Of a stretch of 44,228 nt of DNA, positions 1 through 44,228 are shown piece after piece; within the stretch, counting starts at the first letter, position 1; each line of letters starts with the position of its first letter. Under the pieces are notes generated by a model. The model was not told the DNA's origin. It saw only the letters and a list, made by a program, of their open reading frames with translations, and made no database searches. Both the position numbers and the translations under genes were made by a program. The DNA is taken from the sequence record PV040721.1, one strand, 5' to 3'. This stretch comes from Escherichia phage BUCT825.

Positions 1-127
1 ATATACGGTACGTTGTACTTTTTAGCCAGACGCGCTGCCACTTTGCATGTAATCACAGCCTCTACCTGAAACGTTGGGTTTTTCTTCCGCTTTGTTTCGA
101 AATGCGCAGCCCCACTAACGGCTAAAT
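1..127. repeat. Left copy of exact 127-bp terminal duplication (identical to 44102-44228)
   Basis: Base-by-base identity of 1-127 with 44102-44228 read directly. Confidence 0.95.
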
Positions 128-356
128 CTGTGCAAGGAGGGAACGCAAAAATAATATCCGGCGCAACCTCGAAGTCGAATTTATTATCAATCCACGCGTT
201 TATATAGTGGATGTTCTCGTGTTCAACTTTTGCACCCAATCGCGCGTAGTCGCCATGGTCAGCGCCGTCGTAGTTGAAACAATAGCAAGTATGGCCTGCT
301 TCCGCCCACGGCTGGGCCATAAGGCCCGAACCGTCAAACAATGACCAGACAATCAT
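1..356 (-). CDS. DNA (cytosine-5)-methyltransferase-like protein, N-terminal part (gene continues at 43774-44228 across the circular junction; ~227 aa total)
   Basis: Minus-strand ATG at 354-356 overlapping upstream stop (ATGA); manual translation MIVWSLFDGSG...FAFPPCTDLAVSGA...ENPV reads open through position 1 into 44228; motifs resemble C5-MTase I (FxGxG), IV (PC), VI (ENV). Confidence 0.6.
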   Translation of the reverse strand, partial: MIVWSLFDGSGLMAQPWAEAGHTCYCFNYDGADHGDYARLGAKVEHENIHYINAWIDNKFDFEVAPDIIFAFPPCTDLAVSGAAHFETKRKKNPTFQVEAVITCKVAARLAKKYNVPY

Positions 357-544
357 TTCAGCACCAGAACTAACTCTTTACGCCCGAACGCCGTAACGTT
401 GCCTGTTACGTCTTCGATAACCAGTTTACCGTTCGACTCGACGTATACCGTATCAACGGCAACAGGACGACGGGTCTTAACGTTAAAAATCATGTCGCCA
501 GGTACGATGTCACGTGCTGGTTTGCGGTCATATTCGTGTTTCAT
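353..544 (-). CDS. hypothetical small protein (63 aa)
   Basis: ORF in operon context, start/stop overlap with downstream gene. Confidence 0.5.
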   Translation of the reverse strand: MKHEYDRKPARDIVPGDMIFNVKTRRPVAVDTVYVESNGKLVIEDVTGNVTAFGRKELVLVLK

Positions 545-574
545 TTCCCAATTCCTTATATTGTTGGTGTACGG

Positions 575-862
575 CTAACTATAATAGTTCGCTATTAGGT
601 CGTCAACCTGTTTAAACGACCCGACGACAAAAACATTCGCACCGCGTTTACGCATACGCGCGTGCTCACGTAACTGATGAGGGTCCGGCTTCGTGTTTTC
701 GTCTTTCTTCACCTCGACAAACCAGACTATGCCGTCTGGGAGAATTACCAGCAGGTCGGGGGCGCCCACTCTATTTTCGTATGACAATTTGCGTACGAGG
801 CCACCGAGGGCCTCGAATCGCTCTTTTGCGTATTTCTGTATTTTGCCCTCAGGCGTACTCAT
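575..862 (-). CDS. VRR-NUC domain nuclease (95 aa)
   Basis: Small protein with GAPDLLV...VEVK motif typical of VRR-NUC/PD-(D/E)XK fold. Confidence 0.65.
   Translation of the reverse strand: MSTPEGKIQKYAKERFEALGGLVRKLSYENRVGAPDLLVILPDGIVWFVEVKKDENTKPDPHQLREHARMRKRGANVFVVGSFKQVDDLIANYYS
578..606 (-). promoter_or_regulatory. sigma70-like promoter, minus strand (-35 TTGACG 601-606, 17-bp spacer, -10 TATAGT 578-583), inside the 3' end of the VRR-NUC gene
   Basis: Reverse complement reads TTGACG-N17-TATAGT; near-identical to elements at 3987-4015 and 7083-7111. Confidence 0.6.
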
Positions 863-947
863 CTACGCACCCTTCTCGTTTCGTATGCTCAACCCCACAG
901 CGAGGACAGATTCGGCAGTCTTCTTCGTAGAACCAGTAAATTTTCAT
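849..947 (-). CDS. putative 32-aa Cys-rich (zinc-ribbon-like) peptide
   Basis: Manual translation MKIYWFYEEDCRICPRCGVEHTKREGCVDEYA; start overlaps stop of upstream micro-ORF (ATGA), 3' end overlaps VRR-NUC start. Confidence 0.25.
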   Translation of the reverse strand: MKIYWFYEEDCRICPRCGVEHTKREGCVDEYA

Positions 948-1075
948 TCCAGCACCCACAGATAAATTGCGATGAACATGATCAATATGGCAACCATCAT
1001 GCCGTATTGACCCTCGTGACAGTAGACACCGGCGGCAAATCCAGCCAGTACCGCGATAATCAGTTTACTTGGCAT
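944..1075 (-). CDS. putative 43-aa hydrophobic membrane peptide
   Basis: Manual translation MPSKLIIAVLAGFAAGVYCHEGQYGMMVAILIMFIAIYLWVLE; start overlaps the polymerase stop. Confidence 0.25.
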   Translation of the reverse strand: MPSKLIIAVLAGFAAGVYCHEGQYGMMVAILIMFIAIYLWVLE

Positions 1076-3245
1076 AACGCTTCATCTCCGCACCTTCTGC
1101 TACAAGAGGGAACCCCTCCGCCCATTCAGGTAATTCGCACATCAACCGCTCAAGCTCTGCGACATTGTATTCTGGTAAATCCGGTGTCTCGCAGATAATT
1201 TCATCGTGAACATGAAGCACAATCGGGTAGCCGTTTGCTTCGACGTTCAGCAGCGCATTAGCCAGCAAATCACGGCACAGCGCCTGTGTGCAGTTTTCCA
1301 CGAGTTTACCGGAATATGTGTACTGGAAGCCCCACTGACGGGTTAACTGATTTTCTCCCTGGTACTTTATGCGCACGTTAGTAGACACCTTCCCATCTTC
1401 GTCTGTCTCTTTCGATACGCTCAACCCTACGCCTGGGTAAGACATAACGCGGCCCGACGGCAACGTCATGCGCAGCCACCAACCGGCGACTTTGTTGCTG
1501 TTGTTGTCTGTCTCTACGTTGCGCGAAAACTTAACTCCCCGCGGCCCCGCGGTGAACTCTTTGCCCGGATTGCGGATAGCCGCCATAGCCGCATCTTCAA
1601 TATCACGCCAGAAAGCTACTGTTTCCGGGTGTGACTCACGCCACATACGCTTGATAGCGTCGCAGGTACGCCACACTTTCTTATCAAGAATATAAGATGG
1701 TCGGTCATCTTTTTCACCAGGACGTGGCGGTCGCTTGGCTTCCTGAATACGCGCCCACTCATATCCACGTGCGGTAGCAGCCCAGATGTGGTCGGGGAAA
1801 GTCCCGTCCATTGTTTTTGCCATATCAACAAGGTCAAGGCCGAGGTTTTTGGCGAACTGTACGAATGCACCGACACCACCCGCGTAGCCAAGTCCCAGTT
1901 CGCAGGCCTTACCAATCTGGCGTAAGTCTTTACGTTCTTTCTTAATGTAATCCGACTCCATGCCAAACATCTTGCCTGCGGTTACGCAGTAAATATCCAG
2001 CCCGGCACGGAACGTATCAAGCGCGGTTTCTTCGCCAGCCAGCCACGCCAAACCGCGGCCTTCAACGTTAGAGTAATCGGCGACGACAAACTTATGCCCG
2101 GCTTCAGGTATAATGCAGCTGCGCACCGTCGATGCCGTTAGTTTGGCTACATCGAAACGGCGGTGCGCACGGCCTTTAAGTAACGCAGAAATGCCTTTAT
2201 CCAGTTCGTCGTCGTGATAGTACCCGCGAGCCAGGTTCTGCGGCTGGAAGCCTTTACCCGCAAATCGTAACGTACGTTTAGCTCCACCATACTGGATGCA
2301 ACCGCGACGGCGGTCGTCAGACGAGCGGCCTAACAGCAGCGGGTTATATTTCGTTGACGCAGTGGATGCCGCCCCGAGGCGCATTTCGATAATCGTGCGG
2401 GCGTCGTCCGGTAAATCATCATCCGCCAACAGGTCATTTAGCGTCGACTTCTGCGCGTTGTGGATTCGGTGCGCTGGCGCAAGTTCACGCAGAATAGGAA
2501 GGAAGTCTTTACCAGTAAGCGAGCCGCCGTATTTACGTTGGGCTTCTTCCTGCAACTGCGCTTTGTGTTTCTCTACCGCTTCAATCGCGGCTTCCGCCAA
2601 CGCAACGTCGACCTTAAACCCGCGGTCGTTGATTAACTGGTCCAGTTCCAGTACACGGTCCTCAAACTCCGAGTTACCCCACCGCGGTAGCTTATGGAAC
2701 ACTTCACGCATCGCGGTGATGTCGCTAACTGCGTACTTGATGAACAGCGCCCACTCGTCAGGGTGCGTTTCGGCGGTATAGCGGCGAATTTTGTAGTTCT
2801 TCGGTGTCGGTTTAGAGAAACGCTGAATCAGCGCCTTACCGCGTTTGTCTTTTGCGTTGTCAGCAGATACGCCCAGCACTTCGCACAGCGCATCGAGCGA
2901 ACCCGGCAGCGCGTGACGAAACGCCCAAATCATCGTATCAATGGTGTTGCTTACCGGAATGTCAAAACCCCAGCAGTGTTTCATGACGAGCCTATCGAAC
3001 ATTGAGCCGTTGTGCCACACCATCTTAACGCGGCTGTTCGGCTTAACCAGGCGGCGTAACGCGCGATACAAATCGCCCGGCATATCGCTGCCGTCGGTGC
3101 AATCCCATACCTGTACAGGCTGGTCGTTAAAAGCATATGTACAGATTAGCACTTCGGTAGTTGGATGTTCGGCGTAAGCGTAGGAACCGACTTTCTTCAA
3201 ATCGGCTTCGGAGAATGTTTCAAAGTCTAAGAACAGGTAACTCAT
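1065..3245 (-). CDS. Family A DNA polymerase with N-terminal 3'-5' exonuclease domain (726 aa)
   Basis: Exo I motif LDFETFS; Pol motif A DYSNVEGR, motif B RQIGKACELGLGYAGG, motif C VLHVHDEI. Confidence 0.9.
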   Translation of the reverse strand: MSYLFLDFETFSEADLKKVGSYAYAEHPTTEVLICTYAFNDQPVQVWDCTDGSDMPGDLYRALRRLVKPNSRVKMVWHNGSMFDRLVMKHCWGFDIPVSNTIDTMIWAFRHALPGSLDALCEVLGVSADNAKDKRGKALIQRFSKPTPKNYKIRRYTAETHPDEWALFIKYAVSDITAMREVFHKLPRWGNSEFEDRVLELDQLINDRGFKVDVALAEAAIEAVEKHKAQLQEEAQRKYGGSLTGKDFLPILRELAPAHRIHNAQKSTLNDLLADDDLPDDARTIIEMRLGAASTASTKYNPLLLGRSSDDRRRGCIQYGGAKRTLRFAGKGFQPQNLARGYYHDDELDKGISALLKGRAHRRFDVAKLTASTVRSCIIPEAGHKFVVADYSNVEGRGLAWLAGEETALDTFRAGLDIYCVTAGKMFGMESDYIKKERKDLRQIGKACELGLGYAGGVGAFVQFAKNLGLDLVDMAKTMDGTFPDHIWAATARGYEWARIQEAKRPPRPGEKDDRPSYILDKKVWRTCDAIKRMWRESHPETVAFWRDIEDAAMAAIRNPGKEFTAGPRGVKFSRNVETDNNSNKVAGWWLRMTLPSGRVMSYPGVGLSVSKETDEDGKVSTNVRIKYQGENQLTRQWGFQYTYSGKLVENCTQALCRDLLANALLNVEANGYPIVLHVHDEIICETPDLPEYNVAELERLMCELPEWAEGFPLVAEGAEMKRYAK

Positions 3246-3265
3246 TATTTTCGACCCTTAGTAAA

Positions 3266-3285
3266 AAGGCCCAATGAAGGGCCTT
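3266..3285 (-). terminator. Intrinsic terminator-like hairpin on minus strand between SSB-like gene and polymerase gene
   Basis: Minus strand reads AAGGCCC-TTCATT-GGGCCTT followed by TTTTACT. Confidence 0.45.
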
Positions 3286-3304
3286 AGTTAAATTGATTCA
3301 GATA

Positions 3305-3931
3305 TTAGCGGCGGCGACGTTCGCGGCGCGGTGCTTCATCTTCTTCGTCGTCTTCCAGGTCATTGACGCTCGCAGCGACTTTAGAACCGCCGAACGCTTT
3401 GCCTTCGCCAACGTATTTAATCGCCAGCAGGTTAACGCCGAGGACTTTGTATTTCTGGCTGAACCAGATTTCAACGCTTACGTTAGCTAAGCATCCGCTG
3501 TAAACCTGTTCACCTTCAATCTGTTCACCGTCTACATTGAAGTCCTGTTCTACCTGAGTCTCACCTTTTTTAGAGGTTACAATCAGCGGCTGCTTCTGTG
3601 CCTTCGCTTTGAAGTAGAAGCCTTCCGGGAAGTCTTCAAACGGATTGTCACGCTCGGCAATGTCTTTAATCGCACATTTATCCATGTGCTTACCTTCGCC
3701 GTAGTTGGACTTCATCCACTTCTCGGCGGCGGCTGCACCTAACGCTTCTTCAACTACAGCGTAAACGGTGTCGTAGAGCGCGTCGATTTGCGCGTGGTCG
3801 GACGGCAGGATAATAGTCGCGCTGTACTGACCTTTAGTGATTGAACCATCATCATTTTCACGGTCTTTTTCGCGTTCGAATACGTTAACCCAAGCAGTGT
3901 TTACTTTACGCAGATTTAATTTCAGTCCCAT
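3305..3931 (-). CDS. putative ssDNA-binding protein (DUF2815-like), 208 aa with acidic/arginine-rich tail
   Basis: Position between nuclease and polymerase, own promoter and terminator, acidic C-terminus DDEEDEAPRRERRRR; family assignment from memory. Confidence 0.45.
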   Translation of the reverse strand: MGLKLNLRKVNTAWVNVFEREKDRENDDGSITKGQYSATIILPSDHAQIDALYDTVYAVVEEALGAAAAEKWMKSNYGEGKHMDKCAIKDIAERDNPFEDFPEGFYFKAKAQKQPLIVTSKKGETQVEQDFNVDGEQIEGEQVYSGCLANVSVEIWFSQKYKVLGVNLLAIKYVGEGKAFGGSKVAASVNDLEDDEEDEAPRRERRRR

Positions 3932-3986
3932 TTCTCGATTCCTCAGTTTTCAGTTTACTCCGGGAGCTGCCCGGCCAGTGATTAGA

Positions 3987-4015
3987 ACTATAATAGCTAA
4001 CTATTCAGGTGTCAA
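3987..4015 (-). promoter_or_regulatory. sigma70-like promoter, minus strand (-35 TTGACA 4010-4015, -10 TATAGT 3987-3992)
   Basis: Reverse complement TTGACA-N17-TATAGT; conserved with 578-606 and 7083-7111. Confidence 0.65.
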
Positions 4016-4019
4016 CACT

Positions 4020-5261
4020 TTATTCTAAATCTTCTTCACTAACCTTATTCCACTCAGGACGTTTGTCGTCCGCTGTTGTGACGCATGGCGCCCCCGGCTT
4101 ACGTGTGATGAAGTCTTTCAGTTCTTCTTCTGGTATTACTTTAACCGCTTCGGTCGGCGTCAGGAGCACTTCTTTAGTCAGCTTGTCGCCGTAGAGTTCT
4201 GCTACTTTCTCTGCGTCTTTCCACGCACGATTACCTGGGCGACCTTCCACCAGCTTGTACCCTGGCACTTTCTTACCGGAATGCAACGCAGCAGCCATAG
4301 CTTTTTCGACCTTATCGATGTGCTGGCGCAACAACGGCAACTTCTCATATTCAGCTACGAGTTGCTCCGGCGTAAGTTCCAGCGCAAAGTCGTCCTCCAG
4401 TTCTTCGGCAAGTACAGAATTAACCGTCTTTGTACGCGCTGCGCACTGTTCAGAGAACCGACACCACTGACAACCGTCGACAGACGGCTTAAAGTCCGAC
4501 GCTTTCAGGTTCTTCTTGCCTCGGAAATACGCATCAAGGGCTAACAGTGCGCGTTTCTGTGCGAACTTAGCGAACAGTTCCAGACCTTCAACCGAGATGT
4601 CCCACTCCGACGCGCCCCCGGCGTACGGCTGGAAGATGACTAGGCGCACTACTGATATGTTATAACGTCTCTTGAGTCGGCGGTAAACACCGAGAGCGTA
4701 GAGCATAAGCTGCTTGTTTTCTTTCGCTTCGACATGATGCCGTCCTGTTTTCAGGTCGCCGATAATGAGCATATGCTCGTCAGTGTTCGCCAGTTCCTGA
4801 ACGGCAACAAGGTCAGCGGTTCCGAACGTCTCAACGCCTTCGTAACCCGGATGCAATACCTCAGTAAGATTTACCCGCATTTCCAGCTTGGCGTAAGTCG
4901 CTACGTCGATAATCGCTTTGCAGTAGTCGGTGTACTTGCGCACCTGCTCAATCATGTCAGCCGTAATCAGTACCGCGCCTTTCATCTGGCTAATTAGCGC
5001 CTTAATCTGGCCTTTACCCTCGTCCAGCACGTAAGCGCCGACTTCACGCTCCAACGGCAACGCAGTGCCGCGTATATAGGCGTTGAGATGGACCTCAGCT
5101 ATGGTGTGCATGGCGGTTCCTGATACAGCGGCTTTACCCGACGTGTTAGGGATATCTTTTTCACACGCCAGCGACGCAGCGCATGACAGCCACTTTTTAG
5201 CGCCTGACGGTGACAGTAAGGCGTGTACATCATTATTGCCGCCTCGTTCTTTTAGTTTCAT
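4020..5261 (-). CDS. PD-(D/E)XK / Cas4-like nuclease (DUF2800-like) with C-terminal Cys cluster; start may be 5282
   Basis: ORF 4020-5282; internal ATG at 5261 has a better SD (GGGAG); C-terminal CQWCRFSEQC motif; N-terminal LSPSGAKKWLSCAAS. Confidence 0.6.
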   Translation of the reverse strand: MKLKERGGNNDVHALLSPSGAKKWLSCAASLACEKDIPNTSGKAAVSGTAMHTIAEVHLNAYIRGTALPLEREVGAYVLDEGKGQIKALISQMKGAVLITADMIEQVRKYTDYCKAIIDVATYAKLEMRVNLTEVLHPGYEGVETFGTADLVAVQELANTDEHMLIIGDLKTGRHHVEAKENKQLMLYALGVYRRLKRRYNISVVRLVIFQPYAGGASEWDISVEGLELFAKFAQKRALLALDAYFRGKKNLKASDFKPSVDGCQWCRFSEQCAARTKTVNSVLAEELEDDFALELTPEQLVAEYEKLPLLRQHIDKVEKAMAAALHSGKKVPGYKLVEGRPGNRAWKDAEKVAELYGDKLTKEVLLTPTEAVKVIPEEELKDFITRKPGAPCVTTADDKRPEWNKVSEEDLE

Positions 5262-5412
5262 GCTCTTAAACTCCCACCCCATTTAACTTTACGCGTTTTG
5301 CGCTTGTAGGCGCACGTGTCACCGCTACGGTTGAATATAATCAGCCAAGTCGAGTTGCTTACTCGAAAAGGCTGGTGACATTTAATAAAGAGAAGTCGCG
5401 CTTTACGGTTCG

Positions 5413-5562
5413 TCATTCTGCAATCTCCACAATACGCGCATTAGTGAAACTGCGTGCGAAGCCGAATGTGTAGAAGATGTACTGGGCTTCGTCCAAACGT
5501 GCGTAGCGGCTGTGTTCCTGGTCTTTACCGTCTATTTCTACAATTATCGCGTACCTTGTCAT
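5413..5562 (-). CDS. putative 49-aa protein
   Basis: Manual translation MTRYAIIVEIDGKDQEHSRYARLDEAQYIFYTFGFARSFTNARIVEIAE; ATGA overlap with upstream ORF stop. Confidence 0.3.
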   Translation of the reverse strand: MTRYAIIVEIDGKDQEHSRYARLDEAQYIFYTFGFARSFTNARIVEIAE

Positions 5563-5831
5563 ACCCTGCTCTCCCACTGGTCGATTAAATGTCGCGTCTT
5601 ATGTTCGCAGTGCATAGCCCACCCATACATCGACTCAAAGACATAAAAGTCTGGCTTGGCGAATGTCGTGCGCTTAATCTGTGACACGTGACGGCCTATA
5701 TCTTTAGGCCGCGGTACTTTGCCTAAGTAAGCCATCTCTTCCATCTGGTGCGCTCCGGACGGCGCACGCAACAGCCATAGTGCCTCTGTGTTGTCCCGCC
5801 TGTCGACGGCGCGGTAGAGTTGGTAAATCAT
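5559..5831 (-). CDS. hypothetical protein (90 aa)
   Basis: ORF in tightly packed minus-strand operon. Confidence 0.5.
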   Translation of the reverse strand: MIYQLYRAVDRRDNTEALWLLRAPSGAHQMEEMAYLGKVPRPKDIGRHVSQIKRTTFAKPDFYVFESMYGWAMHCEHKTRHLIDQWESRV

Positions 5832-6031: not shown

Positions 6032-6042
6032 AATTCCGACCC

Positions 6043-7175: not shown

Positions 7176-7391
7176 ATGCAACCATCTGAACTAGGCATCC
7201 GTGTAGAGCAACGCCGTAAAGAACTCGGTATCTCCCAGCGCCGTCTGGCTGTTCTGGCCGGCGTTTCCCAGGGCGCGATTAACCAGCTTGCACTCGGGGT
7301 AACTCAGGACGTACGCCCGGCAACGCTGTTTAAACTGGCGGAAGTGCTGGAAGTAGACGCCAAGTGGCTGGCGCTAGGTGAAGGGGCGTAA
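7176..7391 (+). CDS. XRE/Cro-like helix-turn-helix transcriptional regulator (71 aa)
   Basis: HTH signature ISQRRLAVLAGVSQGAINQL; SD TAAGGAG upstream; only plus-strand gene in a minus-strand module. Confidence 0.75.
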   Translation: MQPSELGIRVEQRRKELGISQRRLAVLAGVSQGAINQLALGVTQDVRPATLFKLAEVLEVDAKWLALGEGA

Positions 7392-7406: not shown

Positions 7407-7408
7407 AC

Positions 7409-9725: not shown

Positions 9726-9959
9726 TTATTCCAGGTCTTCTAAAGTAGCGGTCATTCCGCGAACTTCGGCAACAGCACTATATTTCCCGCCAACATTTTT
9801 CACGACACCAGATTTAACCAGTACCTTCAACGACCCTTCAATAATGGCGGAACTATAGTACCTAAAATAACTACGGCGCAAGTCCATAACGCTGCACGAC
9901 CCTTTTTTACAGGTTAATGAAACGACTGCCGTAAATACGCGGGACTGGAACTCGGTCAT
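9726..9959 (-). CDS. hypothetical protein (77 aa)
   Basis: ORF with stop/start overlap to upstream gene. Confidence 0.5.
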   Translation of the reverse strand: MTEFQSRVFTAVVSLTCKKGSCSVMDLRRSYFRYYSSAIIEGSLKVLVKSGVVKNVGGKYSAVAEVRGMTATLEDLE

Positions 9960-10126
9960 TTTACATTCTCCTTAATCCACGCTTCCACTTTCTCCGGGTT
10001 GAAAGTACCCGGCTGCCGGCGGCCCATAATACGGATACAACAATCCGGGAACTTCCCACTCTTTAACCAGTTATTCAGCGTGCGACGGGTAACCCCAATA
10101 CGCTCGGCTACTTCATTCTGTGTCAT
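9956..10126 (-). CDS. small HTH DNA-binding protein (AlpA/excisionase-like fold), about 56 aa
   Basis: MTQNEVAERIGVTRRTLNNWLKSGKFP; ATG at 10126 with GGGGGT SD; the longer ORF to 10159 would overlap the -10 of its own promoter. Confidence 0.6.
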   Translation of the reverse strand: MTQNEVAERIGVTRRTLNNWLKSGKFPDCCIRIMGRRQPGTFNPEKVEAWIKENVK

Positions 10127-10158
10127 TCTCAAACCCCCATTATCAGTTAACGAAACCA

Positions 10159-10187
10159 AGTATACATTGCGAATAATGGGAAATCAA
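10159..10187 (-). promoter_or_regulatory. sigma70-like promoter, minus strand (-35 TTGATT, 17-bp spacer, -10 TATACT)
   Basis: Reverse complement TTGATT-N17-TATACT directly upstream of the small HTH gene. Confidence 0.55.
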
Positions 10188-10202
10188 ACATAATCGCACC
10201 TA

Positions 10203-10231
10203 TTGACATTAAGAAAATCTTCGTTTAAGGT
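10203..10231 (+). promoter_or_regulatory. candidate promoter, plus strand (-35 TTGACA, 17-bp spacer, -10 TAAGGT)
   Basis: Perfect -35 with correct spacing; weak -10; back-to-back with the minus promoter. Confidence 0.35.
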
Positions 10232-10467
10232 GCTTCTATATCTTAGTTACTTTGATTCCTGTTCACCTTGTAAAACCCGCCGAAAACGAGCGCCCAACGC
10301 GAAGTGTTAGGCGGCAGTTTACTGAACATTCGAATTATCGTAACTTTCCTTCCTAAGTATCTCCGGTTGCCCTGGGCAAGCTCTATTCCCATCGGCGGAA
10401 TATATCTTAAGTATCTGATTTTCTTAAAGTGCCGTAGATTCGCAACCGTAAAAATGTAACGATTATT

Positions 10468-10488
10468 GGGCAGGCTTAGGGCCTGCCC
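10468..10488 (+). terminator. Hairpin GGGCAGGC-TTAGG-GCCTGCCC followed by TTTAGTT (terminator-like) inside the 450-bp noncoding region
   Basis: 8-bp perfect stem read directly. Confidence 0.35.
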
Positions 10489-10570
10489 TTTAGTTACCAA
10501 GTAATAAGAATAAAGGCACAACCCTACCTGAAGAATCACAACGGCAACGTAACCATTTTCAATGAATCTC

Positions 10571-10599
10571 TTGCACACCCCAACATAATAGGTTACTAT
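10571..10599 (+). promoter_or_regulatory. Early-type promoter (-35 TTGCAC, 17-bp spacer, -10 TACTAT followed by TCAC)
   Basis: TTGCACACCCCAACATAATAGGTTACTATTCAC; near-identical copies at 12262-12290 (+) and 32118-32146 (-). Confidence 0.6.
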
Positions 10600-10633
10600 T
10601 CACTTATTGAAACTAGACAGAGGAGTTAGGGTT

Positions 10634-10819
10634 ATGTTTAAGAAGGGTCAGTTGGCTAAAACGAAACGCGGCGGACAGTACGTAATAGTTACCCAGGACG
10701 AAAATGAATACAGTATCGCTGTAGATGTATGGGGTCTTATACGAAAGAAACATGGTTACGCCTTCCGCGATAATTTAAAACTCATCGGCAACAATTTTAA
10801 ATTCAAAGGGGCGAAGTGA
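10634..10819 (+). CDS. hypothetical small protein (61 aa)
   Basis: ATG with SD GAGGAG; first gene after promoter. Confidence 0.5.
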   Translation: MFKKGQLAKTKRGGQYVIVTQDENEYSIAVDVWGLIRKKHGYAFRDNLKLIGNNFKFKGAK

Positions 10820-17974: not shown

Positions 17975-18039
17975 CCATTTAGACGCGTAGGGCGCGTCTG
18001 GTGCGCTCTGATGGTCAGACGCATATGCAAGGGGATTCT

Positions 18040-18588
18040 ATGAAGCTGAAACTCAAGCAGCCATCACCAGAGGTGGTGCAAGCTGCACATGAAGAAGCTG
18101 TTAGCGCAAACCGTCGCCGTAAACGACCGCGCGGTAAACAGAGCCTTTATCAATCATCCCGTAATTCCGCCGCGTTGTGGGACCCGGACTATTGTGACGA
18201 ATTGATTCGTTTCTTCGACCGCACGTCGTGGGAGGCTATGCCGACCGGTGCGCACGGAGACTACAAAGCAGTCATTGCGGATAAACCGCCATCACTGGCT
18301 CGCTTCGCCTTACACATCGGTGTCACTATCCCGATTATTAAGCTGTGGCTGCGCGAGATTCCCTCATTTGCAGAAGCCTATGAAACGGCACAGGCGCTGG
18401 AAGAGGCGTATTTCACTGAGAATGGGGCCGCCGGTATCTCTGCTACGTTCGCCGCCGCTAAGCTGGGCCTTAGCAAAGAGAAACCAGTCGAATCCACCGA
18501 AGAAACAGCACCGACCGAGATTATTTTCAGTGTCGCGGAGCCTGTGGGTAAAATCGTAACAACGAATATGGGCGAGGTAGAGGAATGA
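18040..18588 (+). CDS. terminase small subunit (about 182 aa)
   Basis: Immediately upstream of and overlapping TerL; basic N-terminus, HTH-like PSLARFALHIGVTIPIIKLWL, acidic C-terminus; ATG at 18040 with GGGG SD. Confidence 0.6.
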   Translation: MKLKLKQPSPEVVQAAHEEAVSANRRRKRPRGKQSLYQSSRNSAALWDPDYCDELIRFFDRTSWEAMPTGAHGDYKAVIADKPPSLARFALHIGVTIPIIKLWLREIPSFAEAYETAQALEEAYFTENGAAGISATFAAAKLGLSKEKPVESTEETAPTEIIFSVAEPVGKIVTTNMGEVEE

Positions 18589-19835
18589 GTATTCAGCTAT
18601 CCGCACCACAGGCGCTGTTCCTGAATTGCGACAATAAATATAAAGCCTATGTCGGGGGCTTCGGCAGCGGAAAGACATTTGTCGGCTGTCTGGACCTGCT
18701 TACGTTTATGCTCAAGCACCCCGGTACGCGCCTGGGCTACTTCGGCCCGACCTATCCCGCCATCCGTGACATCTTCTACCCAACATTCGAGGAAGCGGCT
18801 AACCTGCTCGGCCTTGATGTGCTGGTTAAATCCGGCGACAAAGAAGTCGTGGTTACTCGCGGTAAGACGGTGCTCGGGACCGTTATCTGCCGCTCTATGG
18901 ATAACCCCGGCTCGATTGTGGGTTTCAAAATCGCCGCAGCATGCGTGGATGAGCTCGATGTATTGAGCCGCGAGAAAGCCGAGCTGGCGTGGAACAAAAT
19001 TGTGGCCCGTATGCGTCTGGTTATCCCGGGTGTAACTAACCACATCTCTGTTACCACGACGCCGGAAGGGTTCAAGTTCGTCTACGCCAAGTTCAAAGAG
19101 AATCCGACGCCAAGTTACTCGATGGTTCAGGCTTCTACACACGAGAACGCGCGATTTCTGCCCCCGGACTACATTAGCTCACTGACCGAGACTTATCCCG
19201 CGCAACTGATTAACGCGTATCTGAACGGTGAGTTCGTCAACCTTACCTCCGGCAGCGTGTACTACGCATACGACCGACGCAAACATCGCAGCAAAGAGAC
19301 AATTCAACCGGGCGACACGCTGTACATCGGCCAGGACTTCAACGTTACGAAGAACGCCAGCGCCGTATATGTGCAGCGTAAAGACGGCTGGCACGCGGTG
19401 GCAGAACTGAAAGGCCTGTTTGATACGCCAGACACCGTGCGTGTAATTACTGAGAAGTGGAAGTCGCAGGACCACCGCATAGTCGTTTACCCGGACGCCA
19501 GCGGCAAGAACCGCAAAACCAACTCGGCATCAATCTCAGATATTGCGTTACTCCAGCAGGCCGGGTTCGATGTTCGCGCTAAATCCGCCAACCCCCCGGT
19601 TAAAGACCGTGTTTTAGCCGTGAATACCGCGCTGGAAAAAGGTAAGCTGTGGGTTAACGACCACTTATGCCCCGAGATAGCGAAGACGCTGGAGCAGCAG
19701 GCATACGACGATAACGGAGAGCCAGCTAAAGACGGCATCATTGACCATATGGCGGATGCTCTCGGCTATCCGGTAGTTTACGAGATGCCGGTGGTTAAAC
19801 CAGTAATCAACATCCCGGTGACTTTCGCACTTTAA
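18585..19835 (+). CDS. terminase large subunit (416 aa)
   Basis: Walker A GGFGSGKT, Walker B AACVDELD, C-terminal nuclease-like region. Confidence 0.85.
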   Translation: MSIQLSAPQALFLNCDNKYKAYVGGFGSGKTFVGCLDLLTFMLKHPGTRLGYFGPTYPAIRDIFYPTFEEAANLLGLDVLVKSGDKEVVVTRGKTVLGTVICRSMDNPGSIVGFKIAAACVDELDVLSREKAELAWNKIVARMRLVIPGVTNHISVTTTPEGFKFVYAKFKENPTPSYSMVQASTHENARFLPPDYISSLTETYPAQLINAYLNGEFVNLTSGSVYYAYDRRKHRSKETIQPGDTLYIGQDFNVTKNASAVYVQRKDGWHAVAELKGLFDTPDTVRVITEKWKSQDHRIVVYPDASGKNRKTNSASISDIALLQQAGFDVRAKSANPPVKDRVLAVNTALEKGKLWVNDHLCPEIAKTLEQQAYDDNGEPAKDGIIDHMADALGYPVVYEMPVVKPVINIPVTFAL

Positions 19836-19847: not shown

Positions 19848-21329
19848 ATGTTAACTATGAACGGTCAGAATCAGGGTGTTAAGACTAAACACCGGGAATG
19901 GCTGCATCACTTCGATAAATGGCAGAAGGTACGCCACGCGCTGGAAGGCGACCTTATTCGCTACCTGCGCAACGTCGGGAAGAACGAACCCGACCCGACG
20001 TACGCTGCGCAGCGCCAGGAAGAATACGAGAACGGCGCTATCTGCTACAACTTCACCAAGCGCACCCTGGCTGGGATGGTCGGCAGTGTCATGCGCAAAG
20101 ACCCTGAACAGATTATTCCGCCTGAACTGGAGTACCTGTTACGTAACGCGGATGGTTCTGGTGTTGGGCTGTGGCAGCACGCGCAAGACACTTTGATGGA
20201 GATTGACTCAGTGGGTCGAGGTGGGTTGCTGGTGGACGCCCCGGAGACCGCCGCGGCAACGGCGGCAGAGCAGAACGCGGGGTTATTAAACCCGGTCATC
20301 GCTTTCTATACCGCAGAGAACATCATCAACTGGCGACTGACCCGCGTCGGTTCTGTTAACCGTGTGACAATGGTCGTGTTGCGTGAAGTGTGGGAATACT
20401 CAGAACCTGGAGCAGAGTTCGAAACTAAGTTCGGTGAACAGTACCGCGTCCTTGACCTGATTGATGGTCGCTACCGCCAGCGCATTTACCGTTTCGACGC
20501 CGAGGGCGGCGCTCAGGGCGAAGTAATCGAAATCTTCCCGGAACTCGGCGAACAGTTACGCGGCAAAATCCCGTTCACGTTCATTGGTGCAAGCAACAAC
20601 GATGCAACCATTGACGATGCACCTTTGCTGCCGTTGGCTGAGCTTAATATTGGGCATTTCCGCAACAGTGCAGACAATGAGGAGTCCAGCTTCGTCGTAG
20701 GCCAGCCTACTCTGTTCATCGCCCCCGGTGAGAACATGAGCATGGAACAATGGAAAGAAGCCAACCCGCACGGAGTGCGCATGGGGTCTCGTTCAGGCCA
20801 TAACATCGGGTACGGCGGCAACGCGTTTCTGGTTCAGGCAGGGGAGAACAACCTCGCCAAACAGAATATGCTGGATAAAGAGAATCAGGCCATTCAGATT
20901 GGCGCGCAGCTTATCACCCCGACGCAGCAAATCACCGCCGAATCCGCCCGCCTGCAACGCGGCGCCGATACGTCAGTCATGGCAACAATCGCGCGTAACG
21001 TAAGCATGGCGTACACCGATGCATTGCGCTGGGTGGCTGCCATGCTTGGGCTTAGTGATGGTACTGAGATTGAGTTCAAACTTAATATGGAATTCTTCCT
21101 GCAACCGATGACCGCTCCCGAACGAGCGCAGTGGACGGCGGATATTAACGCTGGCCTGCTACCCGCTACTGCTTATTACGCGGCATTGCGCAAGGCCGGT
21201 GTAACTGACTGGACAGACGAAGATATTCGGAACGCTATCGATGATGCGCCGCTGCCGTTGGGTACTGTTACTCAGGTAGAGGGAGAGATTCCGCAGTCGG
21301 CGCAGCAACAAGACGCCACTCAGCCGTAA
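19848..21329 (+). CDS. portal protein (493 aa)
   Basis: Size and position directly after TerL, followed by terminator and head morphogenesis gene. Confidence 0.7.
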   Translation: MLTMNGQNQGVKTKHREWLHHFDKWQKVRHALEGDLIRYLRNVGKNEPDPTYAAQRQEEYENGAICYNFTKRTLAGMVGSVMRKDPEQIIPPELEYLLRNADGSGVGLWQHAQDTLMEIDSVGRGGLLVDAPETAAATAAEQNAGLLNPVIAFYTAENIINWRLTRVGSVNRVTMVVLREVWEYSEPGAEFETKFGEQYRVLDLIDGRYRQRIYRFDAEGGAQGEVIEIFPELGEQLRGKIPFTFIGASNNDATIDDAPLLPLAELNIGHFRNSADNEESSFVVGQPTLFIAPGENMSMEQWKEANPHGVRMGSRSGHNIGYGGNAFLVQAGENNLAKQNMLDKENQAIQIGAQLITPTQQITAESARLQRGADTSVMATIARNVSMAYTDALRWVAAMLGLSDGTEIEFKLNMEFFLQPMTAPERAQWTADINAGLLPATAYYAALRKAGVTDWTDEDIRNAIDDAPLPLGTVTQVEGEIPQSAQQQDATQP

Positions 21330-39227: not shown

Positions 39228-39239
39228 AGAGGACTCTAT

Positions 39240-42194
39240 ATGTCAAGCGGATGCGGTGACGTTTTAAGCTTGGCGGATTTACAAACCGCCAAGAAACACC
39301 AGATTTTCGAAGCTGAGGTTATTACCGGTAAATCCGGCGGTGTTGCTACTGGTGCTGATATTGATTACGCGACCAACGCAGTTACAGGGCAGACACAGAA
39401 GACACTGCCGGCTGTGTTGCGTGACGCAGGTTTTAAACTGGCAGATTTTGATTTCACGTCAGGCGGTACACTATCCGCTAACGACCGAAACACCGCAGTT
39501 TTGTGGCCGTCGTCCTCTGGCGGTGACGGGGATTGGTACTATTGGTTGGGTGCTCTGCCAAAAATTATCCCAGCGTCATCTTCTCCGCAGTCCACCGGTG
39601 GCGTGGCAGATGGGGCGTGGCAACCCGTCGGGTCGGTCGTACTGAGGCAGCAAATATCTAATGTAAACGGTGCAACTCTGTACCCAGATTTACATATGGC
39701 GCGATGGAAGGACGAATACGACCTACGCGCATGGGGCGCCGTGGGCGACGGTGTAACTGATGATACTCAATCTATTTTTAATGTATTAGCAGCTTCTCCC
39801 AACAATTGGATTATAGACGGCAGGGGTTTGACTTATAAAGTTTCCCAATTACCGGACATTAGTAAATTTAAGAATGCTGCATTCGTTTACGAGCGCGTAG
39901 CCGGGCAACCGCTTACTTATGTAGCTGATGGCTTCTTTAACAGCTCACTAACTAAGGTGACGGATACCCCGTTCTACAACGCATGGACGCAGGATAAAAC
40001 TTTCGTCTACGACCATGTTATTTACGCCCCGTTTATGGCGGGCGAACGACATGGCGTTCAAAACTTACATGTAGCTTGGGTTCGCTCTGGTGACGACGGG
40101 CAGACTTGGTCAATGCCTGAGTGGTTGACTCCAATCCATGCCGACTATAATGCCAGTGTTTCTGCAGACAGAGTTAACTACCACTGCATGAGCATGGGTA
40201 CGTGCGGCAACCGATTATATGCAGTTATAGAAACCCGCTACTTGTCTAATATGCGGATGAAGAAGGCAGAACTTTGGTCACGCCCGATGCCGTATTTTAG
40301 ACACCCAACCGGCGGAATAACTATTAGTTCTGGCTCCACTACTGCTACCATTGTTATAGAAAATCATGGCCTAAAAGCAGGAGATGCGGTTAACTTCTCT
40401 AATACATCGGCAACTGGCGTATCGGGTAATATGACGGTTGCGTCTATAATTAACCGAAATACGTTCACTGTTACGCTCTCAAGCCCTGCGGGTTCCACCA
40501 TAAACAATGCGGGGGTTACCTGGAACTTCGCAACGCGATTCTGGGACAGCCCGTGGGAAATTACCGAATTGCCGGGGGTGGCATACTCCACTAACGCTGA
40601 TTTGTGTGTCACGGAGACACATAGTTTTGCGGTTATAGATGATACTAACTACACTATCGCTGTCGGCTACCACAACGGCGATGTGTCCCCTCGTCGTCTT
40701 GGCGTCTTGTATTTTAGTAACGTTTATGACAACCCAGGCGTATTCGTTCGTCGCACTGTCGCTCAGGCATACGCTGATAACGCTTCTGAACCGTGCGTGA
40801 AAAGTTATGGAGGTGTGCTCTACCTTACCACACGCGGCACATTACCTACTTCCCCTGGCTCTACACTGGCGATGAGCACCGATTCTGGGCAAAACTGGAG
40901 CTACTTGCGATTTCCGAACAATGTACATCACTCCAATCTTCCGTTCGCTAAAGTAGGTGACTATCTCTACATCTTTGGTACAGAACGTGCCTTTGGCGAG
41001 TGGGAAGGGGGTGCGCCGGACAGCCGCTATGAAGGTTCGTATCCACGGACCTTTATGTGCAAAGTTAATGTGTCGTCATGGCCTTCATCTTTAGATGATG
41101 TTCAGTGGTTTAATATTACCGACCAAATATACCAGGGCCATATCGTTAACTCTGCAGTCGGCGTCGGCTCTGTCTGTGTTAAAGATGGCTGGTTGTACTA
41201 TATCTTTGGAGGGGAAGACTTCTTCTCTCCCTGGAGCATAGGGGATAACAGTGCGAAGTTATGGTACAAACATGATGGGCACCCGGCTGACTTATATAGC
41301 TACCGGATAAAGATTGAAGACCACCCGTATGTGTCACGTGATTTCAAATACGGAGCAACTCCTAACCGTACACTACCTGTCGCAATGGGTGTAGATGGTG
41401 TCCGTCATGTAGAAGCACCTTTGACGTTTGACAATGATGTAAGCGTGTACTCCCTGCGTGTAACGGGGTTGGAATACGACGGCACACAACAGTCTGCCGT
41501 GCGTGCGCGGTTTGATGGTGATTACGGGCTGATTTCAAAAACAGTCCCGACTAAAACTCCATCTGCTCAACGACTGATTGTTAGTGGCGGTGATGGCGCA
41601 TCCAGTTCCGACGGTGCATTGCTGCAGCTGTACGGGTCGAACCATGCAACGCCTAACAGGGCTATTATGTATGCGTCAGGAGGCTTCTACTCATACGCCA
41701 ATTTCCTTCCTTACTTAGACTCGCAAGTGTCTTTAGGTTCGGCAAGTAATAGGTGGACTACGGTGTACGCGACCACCGGTACGATAAACACGTCTGACGG
41801 TACACTTAAGACGAACAAAGAGGAAATTGAGGAACAACTCCTTACCGCGTGGGAAGATATACATGTAATATCTTTTAAGTGGCTTGAAAGCCTAGCAACC
41901 AAAGGTGACACTGCAAGGATACACTTCGGTGTGATAGCCCAAGATGTGCGAGACATATTGGTCAAACATGGGCTTATGGAGAAAGATTCTACCGATTGTA
42001 AATATGCTTTCTTGTGCTACGACTCAATTGAAGCTGCGTATGATATTGATGAAGATGGACGGACTGTACAAGTATCCCCTCCCGGCGGCAGATGGGGGGT
42101 TAGGGCGGACCAGATGTTCTTCATAGAGATTGCGTATCAGCGTAAGAAGATGCGCGAGTTCGAGAAGAGGCTGGCAGCACTAGAAGATAAATAA
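39240..42194 (+). CDS. tailspike: endosialidase-like (sialidase Asp-boxes) with C-terminal intramolecular chaperone (peptidase S74-like) domain, 984 aa
   Basis: Asp-boxes SGDDGQTW and STDSGQNW; C-terminal NTSDGTLKTNKEEIEE auto-cleavage-type motif (Ser codon 41793-41795); SD AGAGGA. Confidence 0.75.
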   Translation: MSSGCGDVLSLADLQTAKKHQIFEAEVITGKSGGVATGADIDYATNAVTGQTQKTLPAVLRDAGFKLADFDFTSGGTLSANDRNTAVLWPSSSGGDGDWYYWLGALPKIIPASSSPQSTGGVADGAWQPVGSVVLRQQISNVNGATLYPDLHMARWKDEYDLRAWGAVGDGVTDDTQSIFNVLAASPNNWIIDGRGLTYKVSQLPDISKFKNAAFVYERVAGQPLTYVADGFFNSSLTKVTDTPFYNAWTQDKTFVYDHVIYAPFMAGERHGVQNLHVAWVRSGDDGQTWSMPEWLTPIHADYNASVSADRVNYHCMSMGTCGNRLYAVIETRYLSNMRMKKAELWSRPMPYFRHPTGGITISSGSTTATIVIENHGLKAGDAVNFSNTSATGVSGNMTVASIINRNTFTVTLSSPAGSTINNAGVTWNFATRFWDSPWEITELPGVAYSTNADLCVTETHSFAVIDDTNYTIAVGYHNGDVSPRRLGVLYFSNVYDNPGVFVRRTVAQAYADNASEPCVKSYGGVLYLTTRGTLPTSPGSTLAMSTDSGQNWSYLRFPNNVHHSNLPFAKVGDYLYIFGTERAFGEWEGGAPDSRYEGSYPRTFMCKVNVSSWPSSLDDVQWFNITDQIYQGHIVNSAVGVGSVCVKDGWLYYIFGGEDFFSPWSIGDNSAKLWYKHDGHPADLYSYRIKIEDHPYVSRDFKYGATPNRTLPVAMGVDGVRHVEAPLTFDNDVSVYSLRVTGLEYDGTQQSAVRARFDGDYGLISKTVPTKTPSAQRLIVSGGDGASSSDGALLQLYGSNHATPNRAIMYASGGFYSYANFLPYLDSQVSLGSASNRWTTVYATTGTINTSDGTLKTNKEEIEEQLLTAWEDIHVISFKWLESLATKGDTARIHFGVIAQDVRDILVKHGLMEKDSTDCKYAFLCYDSIEAAYDIDEDGRTVQVSPPGGRWGVRADQMFFIEIAYQRKKMREFEKRLAALEDK

Positions 42195-42198
42195 AACT

Positions 42199-42222
42199 AA
42201 GGCCCCAAACGGGGCCTTTTCT
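42199..42222. terminator. Bidirectional intrinsic terminator (AAGGCCCC-AAAC-GGGGCCTT), repeat of 29667-29690
   Basis: Same stem and flanks as 29667 with different loop. Confidence 0.7.
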
Positions 42223-42360
42223 CTACTCTTCCGATAACTTCTCCAGTACAAACGCCAGTTGCGCATTAGCGGCGTCTCTCTGTTGCCGTAGTCGCAGAAC
42301 CTCCTCTTCGAGTTCCTTGATACGTTTTTGCAATGCCGGAATCGGGGCTATGATGTTCAT
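42220..42360 (-). CDS. putative 46-aa coiled-coil peptide downstream of SNF2 helicase
   Basis: Manual translation MNIIAPIPALQKRIKELEEEVLRLRQQRDAANAQLAFVLEKLSEE; ATGA overlap with SNF2 stop. Confidence 0.3.
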
Positions 42361-43781
42361 TTCTTACCTCGTCTCTTCATGTAATTAAGCAACTCTTCCT
42401 GTACCGACTTCTTCTCATCAGTGCGCGCGGCAACAACTTCGTCCAGTGTGTCTTTAGCAACGATGTGATACAGAAACACCGGGCGTTCGTGCCCCGCCTG
42501 TTTCTGGCGAACTGGACCTATACGCTCCACAACCTGCAAATAGTGCTCAAGGTTCCAGCCTTGCGAGATGAATGCCAGATGATGTCCGCCGTCCTGTAAA
42601 TTCAAACCATGCCCGGCTGACGCAGGATGCACGCATAAGATTTCGATTTCCCCACGGTTCCACGCTTCCATCTGCTTATTACCCTTAGCGCCTTTTGCAA
42701 ACGCATGAGCCTGCGGGAATCGCTTAAGGATTCGTTCCAGTTCATGCTTGAACTGATAGGCCACCAGTAACGGCGCCCCCTGTAACTCCTCGACAATGGA
42801 CTCCAGCGCATCCAGTTTCGTGTCGTGCACTTTCTCCCAGTCTTTCGTTGCTTCTCCGTCTGGCCCCGACACATATACGGCACCGGATGCAATCTGCAAA
42901 CACTTCGACGTCTTCGCCGCGGCGTTAGCCGCTTCAACCTCTCCGCTTTCCAGTTCCGCGAATAACTTTTCCTCCATATCTATGTATGCCTGACGCGCTT
43001 TCTTCGGCAGGTCGATTTCAACCGGTACGATAATAGGCGCTTCACAACCGAACCACTCGGCAGCGTCAATCGTTAGACTAATGTCCTTCATCTTCTGATG
43101 AATCTCATTGTCCGCGCCAGGGCGCGCGTGATATTCACGGGCCATCGCTGACTTACCTTTCTGTACCGAGTTAAACCAGCGGTCCGTGAACGCCGTGTAT
43201 GAAGAACCGAGGCGCTCGCCTGCGTCGATAAACCAGTTCTGCCCCCACAAGTCCTTGAGGCCGTTTGGCGACGGGGTGCCAGTAAGGTTGATGAAGCGCT
43301 TAACCTTACCGAACGCCACTTTACTAAGCGCCTTTGCCCGCTTGCTTCCGCCAGAACGGCTGCGGAATGATTTCAGCTTCGTGCTTTCATCGGCAACGAT
43401 AACCGTAAAAGGCCAGTCGTCTTTGCCGTAGTAGTCAATCAGCCACTCGATAACTTCGTAGTTGGTGCATACCACGTTAGCATCTGACTCCAGCGCAGCT
43501 ATGCGGCGCTTCTCTGGACCTGTCGCATCGACTACACTCAGGCAAGGAAAGTTCCATTTCTCTTGTTCTGCGGGCCATGTGCCGGATGCAACACGTAACG
43601 GGGCTAGGATTAACACGCGGTCCTCTTCCGTAAGCTGCCCGTTGCGGAACAAGCGGTTTAAAGTCCATAGGACGCTGCCCGTCTTCCCGGCACCCATGCT
43701 TGCCCATATGTTGCAGCGATGATGCCGCAGCATGAACGAGGTCATGAGCTTCTGGTACTCTCGACGGATAAATTTAGACAT
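42357..43781 (-). CDS. SNF2-family DEAD/DEAH-box helicase, 474 aa
   Basis: Walker A SMGAGKTG, motif II VADESTKLK, motif III LTGTPSPN. Confidence 0.85.
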   Translation of the reverse strand: MSKFIRREYQKLMTSFMLRHHRCNIWASMGAGKTGSVLWTLNRLFRNGQLTEEDRVLILAPLRVASGTWPAEQEKWNFPCLSVVDATGPEKRRIAALESDANVVCTNYEVIEWLIDYYGKDDWPFTVIVADESTKLKSFRSRSGGSKRAKALSKVAFGKVKRFINLTGTPSPNGLKDLWGQNWFIDAGERLGSSYTAFTDRWFNSVQKGKSAMAREYHARPGADNEIHQKMKDISLTIDAAEWFGCEAPIIVPVEIDLPKKARQAYIDMEEKLFAELESGEVEAANAAAKTSKCLQIASGAVYVSGPDGEATKDWEKVHDTKLDALESIVEELQGAPLLVAYQFKHELERILKRFPQAHAFAKGAKGNKQMEAWNRGEIEILCVHPASAGHGLNLQDGGHHLAFISQGWNLEHYLQVVERIGPVRQKQAGHERPVFLYHIVAKDTLDEVVAARTDEKKSVQEELLNYMKRRGKK

Positions 43782-44228
43782 GATTAGCCTCGTAAACTGC
43801 TTTTGCGAAACCCCTCGGAGTAAGGCTACGGATTGTTTTTGTCCGCACTGATTTACCGCCTAATTTATTGTGTTGGTCAGAGTAACCGTCAGCCACGGCG
43901 ACACATGATTTAACAGGCATCACAAAACCGTTACCCGCCCAAATACATGTCTTCTTAGGGTACGCGTCCCGTGGTTTTATGTATTCAGAGAACATTGGGT
44001 GCGTGTCGTTTTCCGGTAGATAACCGCCGTATTCGTAGGGATTGAACACATAGTCGGGCCTACGCCATAAAGACGAAAGAACGCTAACAGGGTTCTCAAT
44101 CATATACGGTACGTTGTACTTTTTAGCCAGACGCGCTGCCACTTTGCATGTAATCACAGCCTCTACCTGAAACGTTGGGTTTTTCTTCCGCTTTGTTTCG
44201 AAATGCGCAGCCCCACTAACGGCTAAAT
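43774..44228 (-). CDS. DNA (cytosine-5)-methyltransferase-like protein, C-terminal part (N-terminal part at 1-356 across circular junction)
   Basis: Track ORF 43774-44157 is open upstream to the window edge; frame continues into 128-356; contains ENPV and GNGFVMPV motifs. Confidence 0.6.
   Translation of the reverse strand, partial: LAVSGAAHFETKRKKNPTFQVEAVITCKVAARLAKKYNVPYMIENPVSVLSSLWRRPDYVFNPYEYGGYLPENDTHPMFSEYIKPRDAYPKKTCIWAGNGFVMPVKSCVAVADGYSDQHNKLGGKSVRTKTIRSLTPRGFAKAVYEANHV
44102..44228. repeat. Right copy of exact 127-bp terminal duplication
   Basis: Identical to 1-127; implies circularised/permuted assembly or direct terminal repeat. Confidence 0.95.

Follow-up and report, generated by a model that had tools for sequence, protein, structure and literature searches.

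An exact 127-bp duplicate at the ends of the Escherichia phage BUCT825 sequence almost certainly reflects an assembler closing a circle

Overlaps of 127 bp at the two ends of a contig have been documented as artefacts of the SPAdes assembler (PMC5923482), and in phage U136B the same 127 bp were trimmed (PMC8104045). A 77-bp version of the SPAdes end overlap is also known, and the same k-mer end overlap was reported in cos-type Chi-like phages, together with genes spanning the contig ends (PMC9409062). As for DNA packaging, PhageTerm assigned the Kagunavirus Snoke, the contig ends of which were joined by PCR, to the pac/headful type (PMC6776784), and Shashou was also called pac. In the Kagunavirus fBC-Eco01 no defined termini were found, and PhageTerm made no call for two kagunaviruses; such an outcome is typical for a permuted genome. 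For Jerseyvirus K47, PhageTerm, a circular-type EcoRV digest and a broad PFGE band all indicated headful packaging.

In this work, we analyzed the complete record of Escherichia phage BUCT825 (PV040721.1), a window of 44,228 nucleotides. Bases 1-127 are the same, base for base, as bases 44102-44228. The bases directly flanking the two copies differ, so that identity stops at exactly 127, the longest exact match between a prefix and the suffix of the window. A match of 127 nt is expected by chance with a probability of about 4^-127, which excludes chance as its source. No other long repeat was found in the window, and the next direct one measures 55 nt at 75% identity. The exact terminal duplicate of the original prediction was therefore confirmed as complete and not extendable, and so was the unique length that it had given, as removal of one copy leaves a circle of 44,101 bp (positions 1-44101). 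The copy to be kept (1..127) lies within the coding sequence of a DNA methyltransferase gene, and the redundant copy to be trimmed is that at 44102..44228, the 127-mer being single-copy in five Logan contigs and in phage JSSK01. Composition, conservation and repeats were inspected at the resulting junction and nothing special was found there: base composition and GC skew run unbroken across it, and in three records of relatives with the gene, which come from two phages (one record of JSSK01 and two of BCH953P1), the conservation of the 127-mer is similar to that of its right flank.

On the de-duplicated circle, one minus-strand frame runs across the junction for 234 codons from stop to stop, as expected from the earlier claim of an unbroken frame. 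It contains an ORF of 227 amino acids, complement(join(43774..44101,1..356)), whose 5′ part (1..356, minus strand) has its start codon at 356 and whose 3′ part (43774..44101, minus strand) ends with the stop at 43774-43776. The ORF went unrecognized in the Pfam scan but was recognized by PHROGs, where its entire length (residues 1-226, E 1.7e-86) is matched by PHROG 757, ‘DNA methyltransferase’. In relatives, this gene is annotated as a DNA cytosine methyltransferase, and in independent Logan contigs the intact 227-aa gene lies directly upstream of the helicase gene. It is missing in many relatives, XY1 included, which excludes it as a conserved packaging site.

The junction was also found unbroken elsewhere. 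A 1,400-nt segment spanning the junction of the de-duplicated circle aligns in one piece, internally, in the 40 best relatives listed, and at least 80% of it is found at a single place in 51 records. Five independent Logan contigs, which stem from separate SRA runs, align through the junction with 98.8-99.98% identity, four of them gap-free, and each contains the 127-mer exactly once. A 39-mer across the boundary of the repeat matched only another contig in IMG/VR, of 43,620 bp and ~88% identity, and a 45-mer had no match among the JGI metagenome contigs. Look-ups of the exact TerL and portal proteins gave no match, and that of the helicase retrieved near-identical relatives but not the BUCT825 sequence. 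Window positions 44101 and 1 correspond to the adjacent bases 29311 and 29312 of JSSK01, the remainder of the genome being colinear (38,980 of 44,101 bp aligned). Among seven relatives checked, the openings of the GenBank records are scattered and none lies at the window junction. Two of the seven records carry exact end overlaps of their own, of 55 bp in EP-B-K_E2 and of 87 bp in SXAU_B4, both at map positions other than the window junction.

These data bear on the alternative, included in the original prediction, that the duplicate is a genuine 127-bp direct terminal repeat (DTR). The virion DNA would then have fixed ends at 1 and 44228 of the window, like that of T7- or N4-like phages. In form, the deposited sequence is just what a DTR would look like, and a collapsed DTR would likewise look continuous in other assemblies, so that the unbroken junction alone does not exclude it. 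Nevertheless, 127 bp is a documented length of the artificial SPAdes overlap, a point missed in the original prediction, and the length therefore reflects the assembler and not biology. Moreover, fixed ends at this site would split the conserved 227-aa gene in the virion, the junction lying in the middle of the methyltransferase instead of sparing it. The relatives are contiguous through the site rather than sharing ends there, their own overlaps differ in length and position, many of them lack the gene altogether, and the packaging genes of BUCT825 match those of pac/headful phages. If the DTR were real, an accessory methyltransferase would be whole only after circularization or concatemer formation, and this kagunavirus lineage would have switched from headful to fixed-end packaging. 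We regard this alternative as very unlikely.

The 127-bp duplicate is almost certainly the trace of an assembler closing a circle instead of a biological repeat. The two ends are 100% identical over an odd assembler k (127), the sequence becomes contiguous in independent assemblies and relatives once one copy is removed, and the break point is arbitrary, falling inside the 227-aa ORF at a place not common to the relatives. Going by the overlap length alone, the assembler was most likely SPAdes at k=127. The reads would have formed a circular path in the de Bruijn graph, which the assembler would print in linear form, with the first k bases given again as the last k and with a cut landing at an arbitrary point, here within the methyltransferase gene. 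An end repeat equal to the assembler k-mer thus speaks for completeness, that is, for a closed graph, and is silent on the physical ends of the molecule. It shows a circular assembly graph only and not a permuted genome, since the same overlap is seen in cos phages of the Chi-like type and is not specific to permuted genomes.

BUCT825 has an ordinary genome, complete at 44,101 bp, and is a K1-capsule-specific E. coli phage of the genus Kagunavirus (Guernseyvirinae). It shows synteny with genus members and is ~89-95% identical to many kagunaviruses across most of its length, and its last rightward-arm gene (39240..42194, plus strand) encodes an endosialidase tailspike, the K1 capsule depolymerase, with an End_beta_propel domain (E 4e-224) and other endosialidase domains. 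Neither tRNA genes nor Rfam families were found in the window. The phage is unremarkable within a genus that has been sampled well. The closest whole-genome relatives are JSSK01 (OQ442786, deposited as circular), with ~95% identity over 95% in the comparison with the right part of the window, and vB_EcoS_XY1 (NC_073325), with ~95% identity over 88% in the comparison with the left part. JSSK01 shares with the window the K1 endosialidase and, at the position of the junction, the methyltransferase gene, and its map is colinear with the window on the circle, but it differs in having the other TerL allele (54% identical), one additional TOPRIM gene and a lysis cassette without the HNH gene. The map of XY1 is also colinear on the circle, but without the methyltransferase gene. 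Another record, OZ035805.1, is also 44,101 bp long; it is only ~89% identical and the equal length is coincidental.

The restored ORF and the colinearity with the circular JSSK01 support the earlier view that the sequence closes into a circle and that the gene map has to be read circularly. A truly circular molecule, such as an episome, a replicative form or a phage-plasmid, would also give an assembly that closes, and intracellular DNA is possible as a sample. The gene content, however, is typical of a virulent Kagunavirus, with a complete set of terminase, portal, capsid, tail and lysis genes; integrase, partition and plasmid-replication genes were not seen among the proteins scanned, and those relatives that have been isolated form tailed virions containing linear DNA. 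We thus give a circular molecule hardly any credence.

On the circular map, the leftward cluster extends from 10126 across 1/44101 to 42223. Its first gene, which starts with the ATG at 10126, encodes a helix-turn-helix (HTH) protein of excisionase/MerR-like type (9956..10126, minus strand; HTH_17, counterpart JSSK01_63). Downstream of the junction gene lies that of a SNF2-family helicase (42357..43781, minus strand; PF00176 and PF00271), an identical protein being present on five Logan contigs, and the last gene is a 45-aa ORF (42223..42360, minus strand; phrog_5915) also called in relatives. This extent agrees with the leftward replication operon proposed originally, from ~10126 through position 1 to ~42220, but the word operon goes too far: an opposite-strand gene and at least four promoter-like sites within the cluster indicate that it is probably not one operon. 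The gene in question encodes an XRE-type HTH regulator (7176..7391, plus strand; HTH_31/HTH_3) and has its own terminator-like hairpin (7380-7400). Among the promoter-like sites, a sigma-70-like candidate that belongs to a repeat family (578..606, minus strand) matches the consensus at 10/12 positions and is situated ~220 nt upstream of the methyltransferase start (356) and ~34 nt upstream of the preceding 63-aa gene. Its siblings at 3987-4015 and 7083-7111, both matching at 11/12, are likewise putative promoters.

The two arms of the map are separated by a divergent control region (10127..10634), which contains a leftward promoter-like site (10187-10159) and one motif copy (10585-10601). At the other strand switch, a GC-rich hairpin (42192..42226), terminator-like on the minus strand (42218-42199), separates the endosialidase gene from the leftward cluster that converges on it. 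The cumulative GC skew has its minimum at 10603 and its peak at 42202, both at strand-switch points.

The packaging genes are found together on the plus strand: the terminase small subunit (TerS, 18001..18588; phrog_3064), the terminase large subunit (TerL, 18585..19835; Terminase_6N and Terminase_6C domains) and a portal protein with a DUF4055 domain (19848..21329). TerS is 90% and TerL 98% identical to the Snoke proteins, which the annotators of that phage noted as similar, by HHpred, to P22 gp3 and T4 gp17, respectively. No solved terminase was matched when TerL was compared with PDB sequences by phmmer, and the placement of TerL therefore relies on the Pfam domains and on the near-identity to Snoke. 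Based on these relatives, we infer headful packaging in BUCT825. The closure of the assembly without fixed ends is consistent with such packaging, being a necessary but not a sufficient sign of it since cos phages can also close. K47, the phage with the strongest wet-lab evidence of headful packaging, has the other TerL allele, only ~52-54% identical.

The duplicate may also be an artefact on virion DNA with defined ends, either cos or a DTR located elsewhere, if reads from concatemers or ligated ends closed the graph. The overlaps and end-spanning genes of the Chi-like phages (PMC9409062) are in line with this possibility, as are the two kagunaviruses left without a PhageTerm call and a note in the record of phage 26 that mentions ‘cohesive ends’, albeit in generic wording. 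On the other hand, the terminase subunits are nearly those of Snoke, a pac/headful phage, Shashou was called pac as well, and the digest and PFGE of K47 point to headful packaging. Additionally, the absence of detected termini is what a permuted genome typically gives, the TerL domains are of the Terminase_6 (T4) type and TerS is annotated as P22 gp3-like. Defined ends are in our opinion unlikely, if somewhat less so than a DTR at the window ends or a circular molecule.

Taken together, it is highly probable that the duplicate, the circular path and permuted, headful-packaged virion DNA belong to one picture, that of a de Bruijn-graph artefact on a complete genome. A pac-initiated headful terminase, formed by TerS and TerL, would cut the molecules from concatemers, and the resulting permuted, terminally redundant linear molecules, as expected from close relatives, would yield the circular read path. 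The true terminal redundancy would then be invisible in the assembly and unrelated to the 127 bp. In the original prediction, the overlap had been taken as the signature of a permuted headful genome closed by the assembler; closure by the assembler stands, but the overlap is no sign of permutation, which relies on separate evidence at the family level.

In practice, users of the record should remove its last 127 bases and work with a circular map of 44,101 bp. In the untrimmed sequence, the methyltransferase is called as two fragments, the genome appears longer than it is, and a ‘DTR’ label could be taken to denote a packaging mechanism.

Among described phages, Snoke (MK931441) offers the nearest comparison for packaging. 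It is a Kagunavirus of ~44 kb, assembled by SPAdes as a single contig of a size like that of the window, with almost the same terminase. It differs in its tailspike and host (E. coli 4s, against the K1 endosialidase of BUCT825) and in the intein in its capsid morphogenesis gene, and its overall nucleotide similarity to the window is below that of JSSK01 or XY1. With phages of the P22, SPP1 and P1 type, BUCT825 would share a TerS-directed pac cut followed by headful cuts that give permuted, redundant DNA, a series of events suggested here by the homology of the packaging genes. The likeness to the SPAdes k=127 overlap is closer: the ends are exact, the length is exactly 127 bp, the break is arbitrary and the gene is restored on trimming, the length suggesting which assembler was used for the window.

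The first 127 bases of the window are repeated base for base at 44102-44228, and no longer exact match between prefix and suffix exists, which bears out the identical ends described in the original prediction. The bases bordering the repeat differ between the two copies. Since a 127-nt match has a probability of about 4^-127, chance can be excluded. Scanned for repeats over its full length, the window showed this end duplicate as the sole long one, the runner-up direct repeat being 55 nt long with 75% identity.

Once one copy is removed, a single minus-strand frame spans the junction of the resulting 44,101-bp circle, as had been proposed, with an ORF of 227 aa, complement(join(43774..44101,1..356)), whose entire length matches PHROG 757 'DNA methyltransferase' (E 1.7e-86). 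Its equivalent in relatives is annotated as a DNA cytosine methyltransferase, and the linearization point thus interrupts a gene midway. The 1,400-nt junction without the duplicate appeared as a single internal alignment in each of the 40 top GenBank relatives listed, and 51 records span at least 80% of it at one location. Five Logan contigs from different SRA runs contain the identical helicase with the intact 227-aa gene upstream, and each has the 127-mer only once; their alignments cross the junction with 98.8-99.98% identity, four being gap-free (e.g., 6,000/6,000 nt, 99.85%) and the fifth having three gap openings. Moreover, the whole genome is colinear with JSSK01 (OQ442786), deposited as circular, in which window positions 44101 and 1 correspond to the neighboring bases 29311 and 29312. 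The GenBank relatives, the Logan contigs and the colinearity with JSSK01 independently show that the DNA is contiguous at the junction, with one copy of the 127-mer. Base composition is also unbroken there, and the cumulative GC skew is lowest at 10603 and highest at 42202, the two strand-switch points.

The methyltransferase is an accessory gene, being absent from vB_EcoS_XY1 (NC_073325; hereafter XY1), SXAU_B4, BEU33, BEU35 and EP-B-K_E2, whose alignments begin at window 353-374. FDGSG and PPC motifs make it C5 methyltransferase-like; a Pfam search did not recognize this protein, which is short for its type.

The largest k used by SPAdes is 127, and de Bruijn graph assemblers print a circular path with an overlap of k bases. 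A circular path printed as a linear sequence in this way would leave a 127-bp duplicate at the ends. An overlap of the same length, 127 bp, was trimmed from phage U136B (PMC8104045). Among seven full GenBank records of relatives checked for end overlaps, EP-B-K_E2 has an exact overlap of 55 bp at approximately window 42,200 and SXAU_B4 one of 87 bp at approximately 29,650, while the other five have none and open at scattered positions (15716, ~18470 in three records, and ~22725). Such odd, unequal lengths at differing map positions within one genus are as expected of arbitrary assembler break points and not of a conserved terminal repeat of biological origin. A genuine 127-bp direct terminal repeat at the window ends, the other alternative originally offered, is highly improbable and should be dropped: it would split the methyltransferase gene in the virion, its site is not conserved (many relatives, XY1 included, lack the gene and match only from window 353-374 onward), none of the seven records opens at the junction position, and the packaging genes match those of pac/headful phages. 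The 127-bp repeat is almost certainly an assembler overlap and no biological feature, the assembler being deduced from its length. Closure by the assembler, the explanation favored in the original prediction, is the right one.

The leftward genes had been placed from ~10126 through position 1 to ~42220, and these limits hold: the cluster starts with an HTH gene (ATG at 10126, minus strand) and its last ORF, of 45 aa, ends at 42223, with a hairpin terminator (42218-42199) beyond it. It includes a primase-helicase (7409-9667), a PD-(D/E)XK/DUF2800 nuclease (4020-5282), an Enc34-type ssDNA-binding protein (3305-3931), DNA polymerase A (1065-3245), a VRR-NUC nuclease (575-862) and, after the junction methyltransferase, an SNF2 helicase (42357-43781). 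In JSSK01, a TOPRIM 'DNA primase' gene (27055-27570) separates the 45-aa ORF from the SNF2 helicase; it is missing from the window (42357-42360) and from the Logan relatives. The term operon should be replaced by gene cluster, because an XRE-type regulator gene (7176-7391) lies on the opposite strand and promoter-like sites occur internally, so that the cluster is probably not a single operon. The top three sigma-70-like sites of 1-10700 all point leftward within it (7111→7083 and 4015→3987, 11/12 consensus; 606→578, 10/12) and form one repeat family (D3); 10187→10159 is a further leftward candidate. By their consensus matches, these sites are candidate promoters.

GAATAGTnnSnTATTAT, a motif whose core is palindromic (AATAG-N4-CTATT), has six copies against 0.02 expected: at 3990-4006, 7086-7102, 7130-7146, 10585-10601 and 12276-12292 on the minus strand and at 32116-32132 on the plus strand. 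According to the ORF list all six copies are intergenic, and two overlap the leftward cluster's best two sigma-70-like promoters. The motif is a candidate operator/promoter family, perhaps belonging to one of the two HTH proteins. Four module boundaries (21331-21365, 22900-22934, 29660-29694 and 42192-42226) carry copies of a GC-rich hairpin, GGCCCCGAAAGGGGCC with a T-run behind it; two of the copies lie between convergent genes, and all four are likely intrinsic terminators.

Some segments differ from JSSK01. An HNH endonuclease ORF (14654-15238, plus strand; PF13392; phrog_99, E 1e-69), inserted after the holin (14154-14462) and before the endolysin (15235-15717), has no match there; probably it encodes a mobile homing endonuclease inside the lysis cassette. 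A three-gene leftward island (29691-31962, minus strand) interrupts the rightward structural arm. It consists of a dNMP-kinase-like gene (29691-30245) and a PNKP-type HAD phosphatase gene (30245-30730), neither of which has a blastn match in JSSK01, plus a calcineurin-like/Mre11-like exonuclease gene (30727-31962).

Megablast against 50,697 phage records (August 2025 collection) placed the window in Kagunavirus (Guernseyvirinae), among the E. coli K1 phages of the K1G/K1H/K1ind group. Its best matches form a mosaic, with XY1 on the left (95.0% identity across 88% of 1-25000) and JSSK01 on the right (95.1% across 95% of 25001-44228), and no record of that collection reaches 95% over the whole genome; BUCT825 may therefore be a distinct species-level lineage. 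Yet Logan contigs from several SRA runs show 99.8-99.98% identity over 3.7-6 kb around the junction. The window encodes a complete endosialidase tailspike of 984 aa (39240-42194; End_beta_propel, E 4e-224), TerS (18001-18588), TerL (18585-19835; Terminase_6N/6C), portal, major head and tape measure proteins, holin, endolysin, primase-helicase, SNF2 helicase and a family-A DNA polymerase; no tRNA genes or Rfam matches were found in it. Trimmed of the duplicate, it is a complete, ordinary Kagunavirus genome whose circular map measures 44,101 bp.

The duplicate had also been read as a signature of permuted headful packaging. Circular closure stands, but the overlap is proof of a circular assembly graph only: the same artefact, with genes spanning contig ends, occurs in cos-type Chi-like phages (PMC9409062), and circular permutation thus needs separate evidence, available at the family level. 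TerS and TerL share 90% and 98% identity with their counterparts in Escherichia phage Snoke (MK931441), for which PhageTerm predicts pac-type headful packaging and PCR joined the ends of the raw contig (PMC6776784); by HHpred, as its annotators noted, Snoke TerS resembles P22 gp3 and TerL resembles T4 gp17. Use of a pac site was predicted for Shashou, and the Kagunavirus fBC-Eco01 has no obvious termini. Jerseyvirus K47 is headful by PhageTerm, with an EcoRV digest fitting a circular map and a broad PFGE band (PMC10783031). By analogy with these relatives, BUCT825 likely packages its DNA by the headful mechanism, a rating short of firm because K47 carries another TerL allele, only ~52-54% identical to that of the window.

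Two terminase alleles occur in one genus, one at window 18471-19835 (3' end of terS plus terL) and the other at JSSK01 3279-4550. The TerL of the window is 98-99% identical to that of Snoke and K1ind2 (~70 records), yet its identity drops to 54% against the TerL of JSSK01, the closest whole-genome relative, and of most Guernseyvirinae. Divergence between the alleles is greatest in the ATPase half, and a third type, that of LM02P1, shares 39% identity. Such a pattern looks like the exchange of a packaging-gene cassette.
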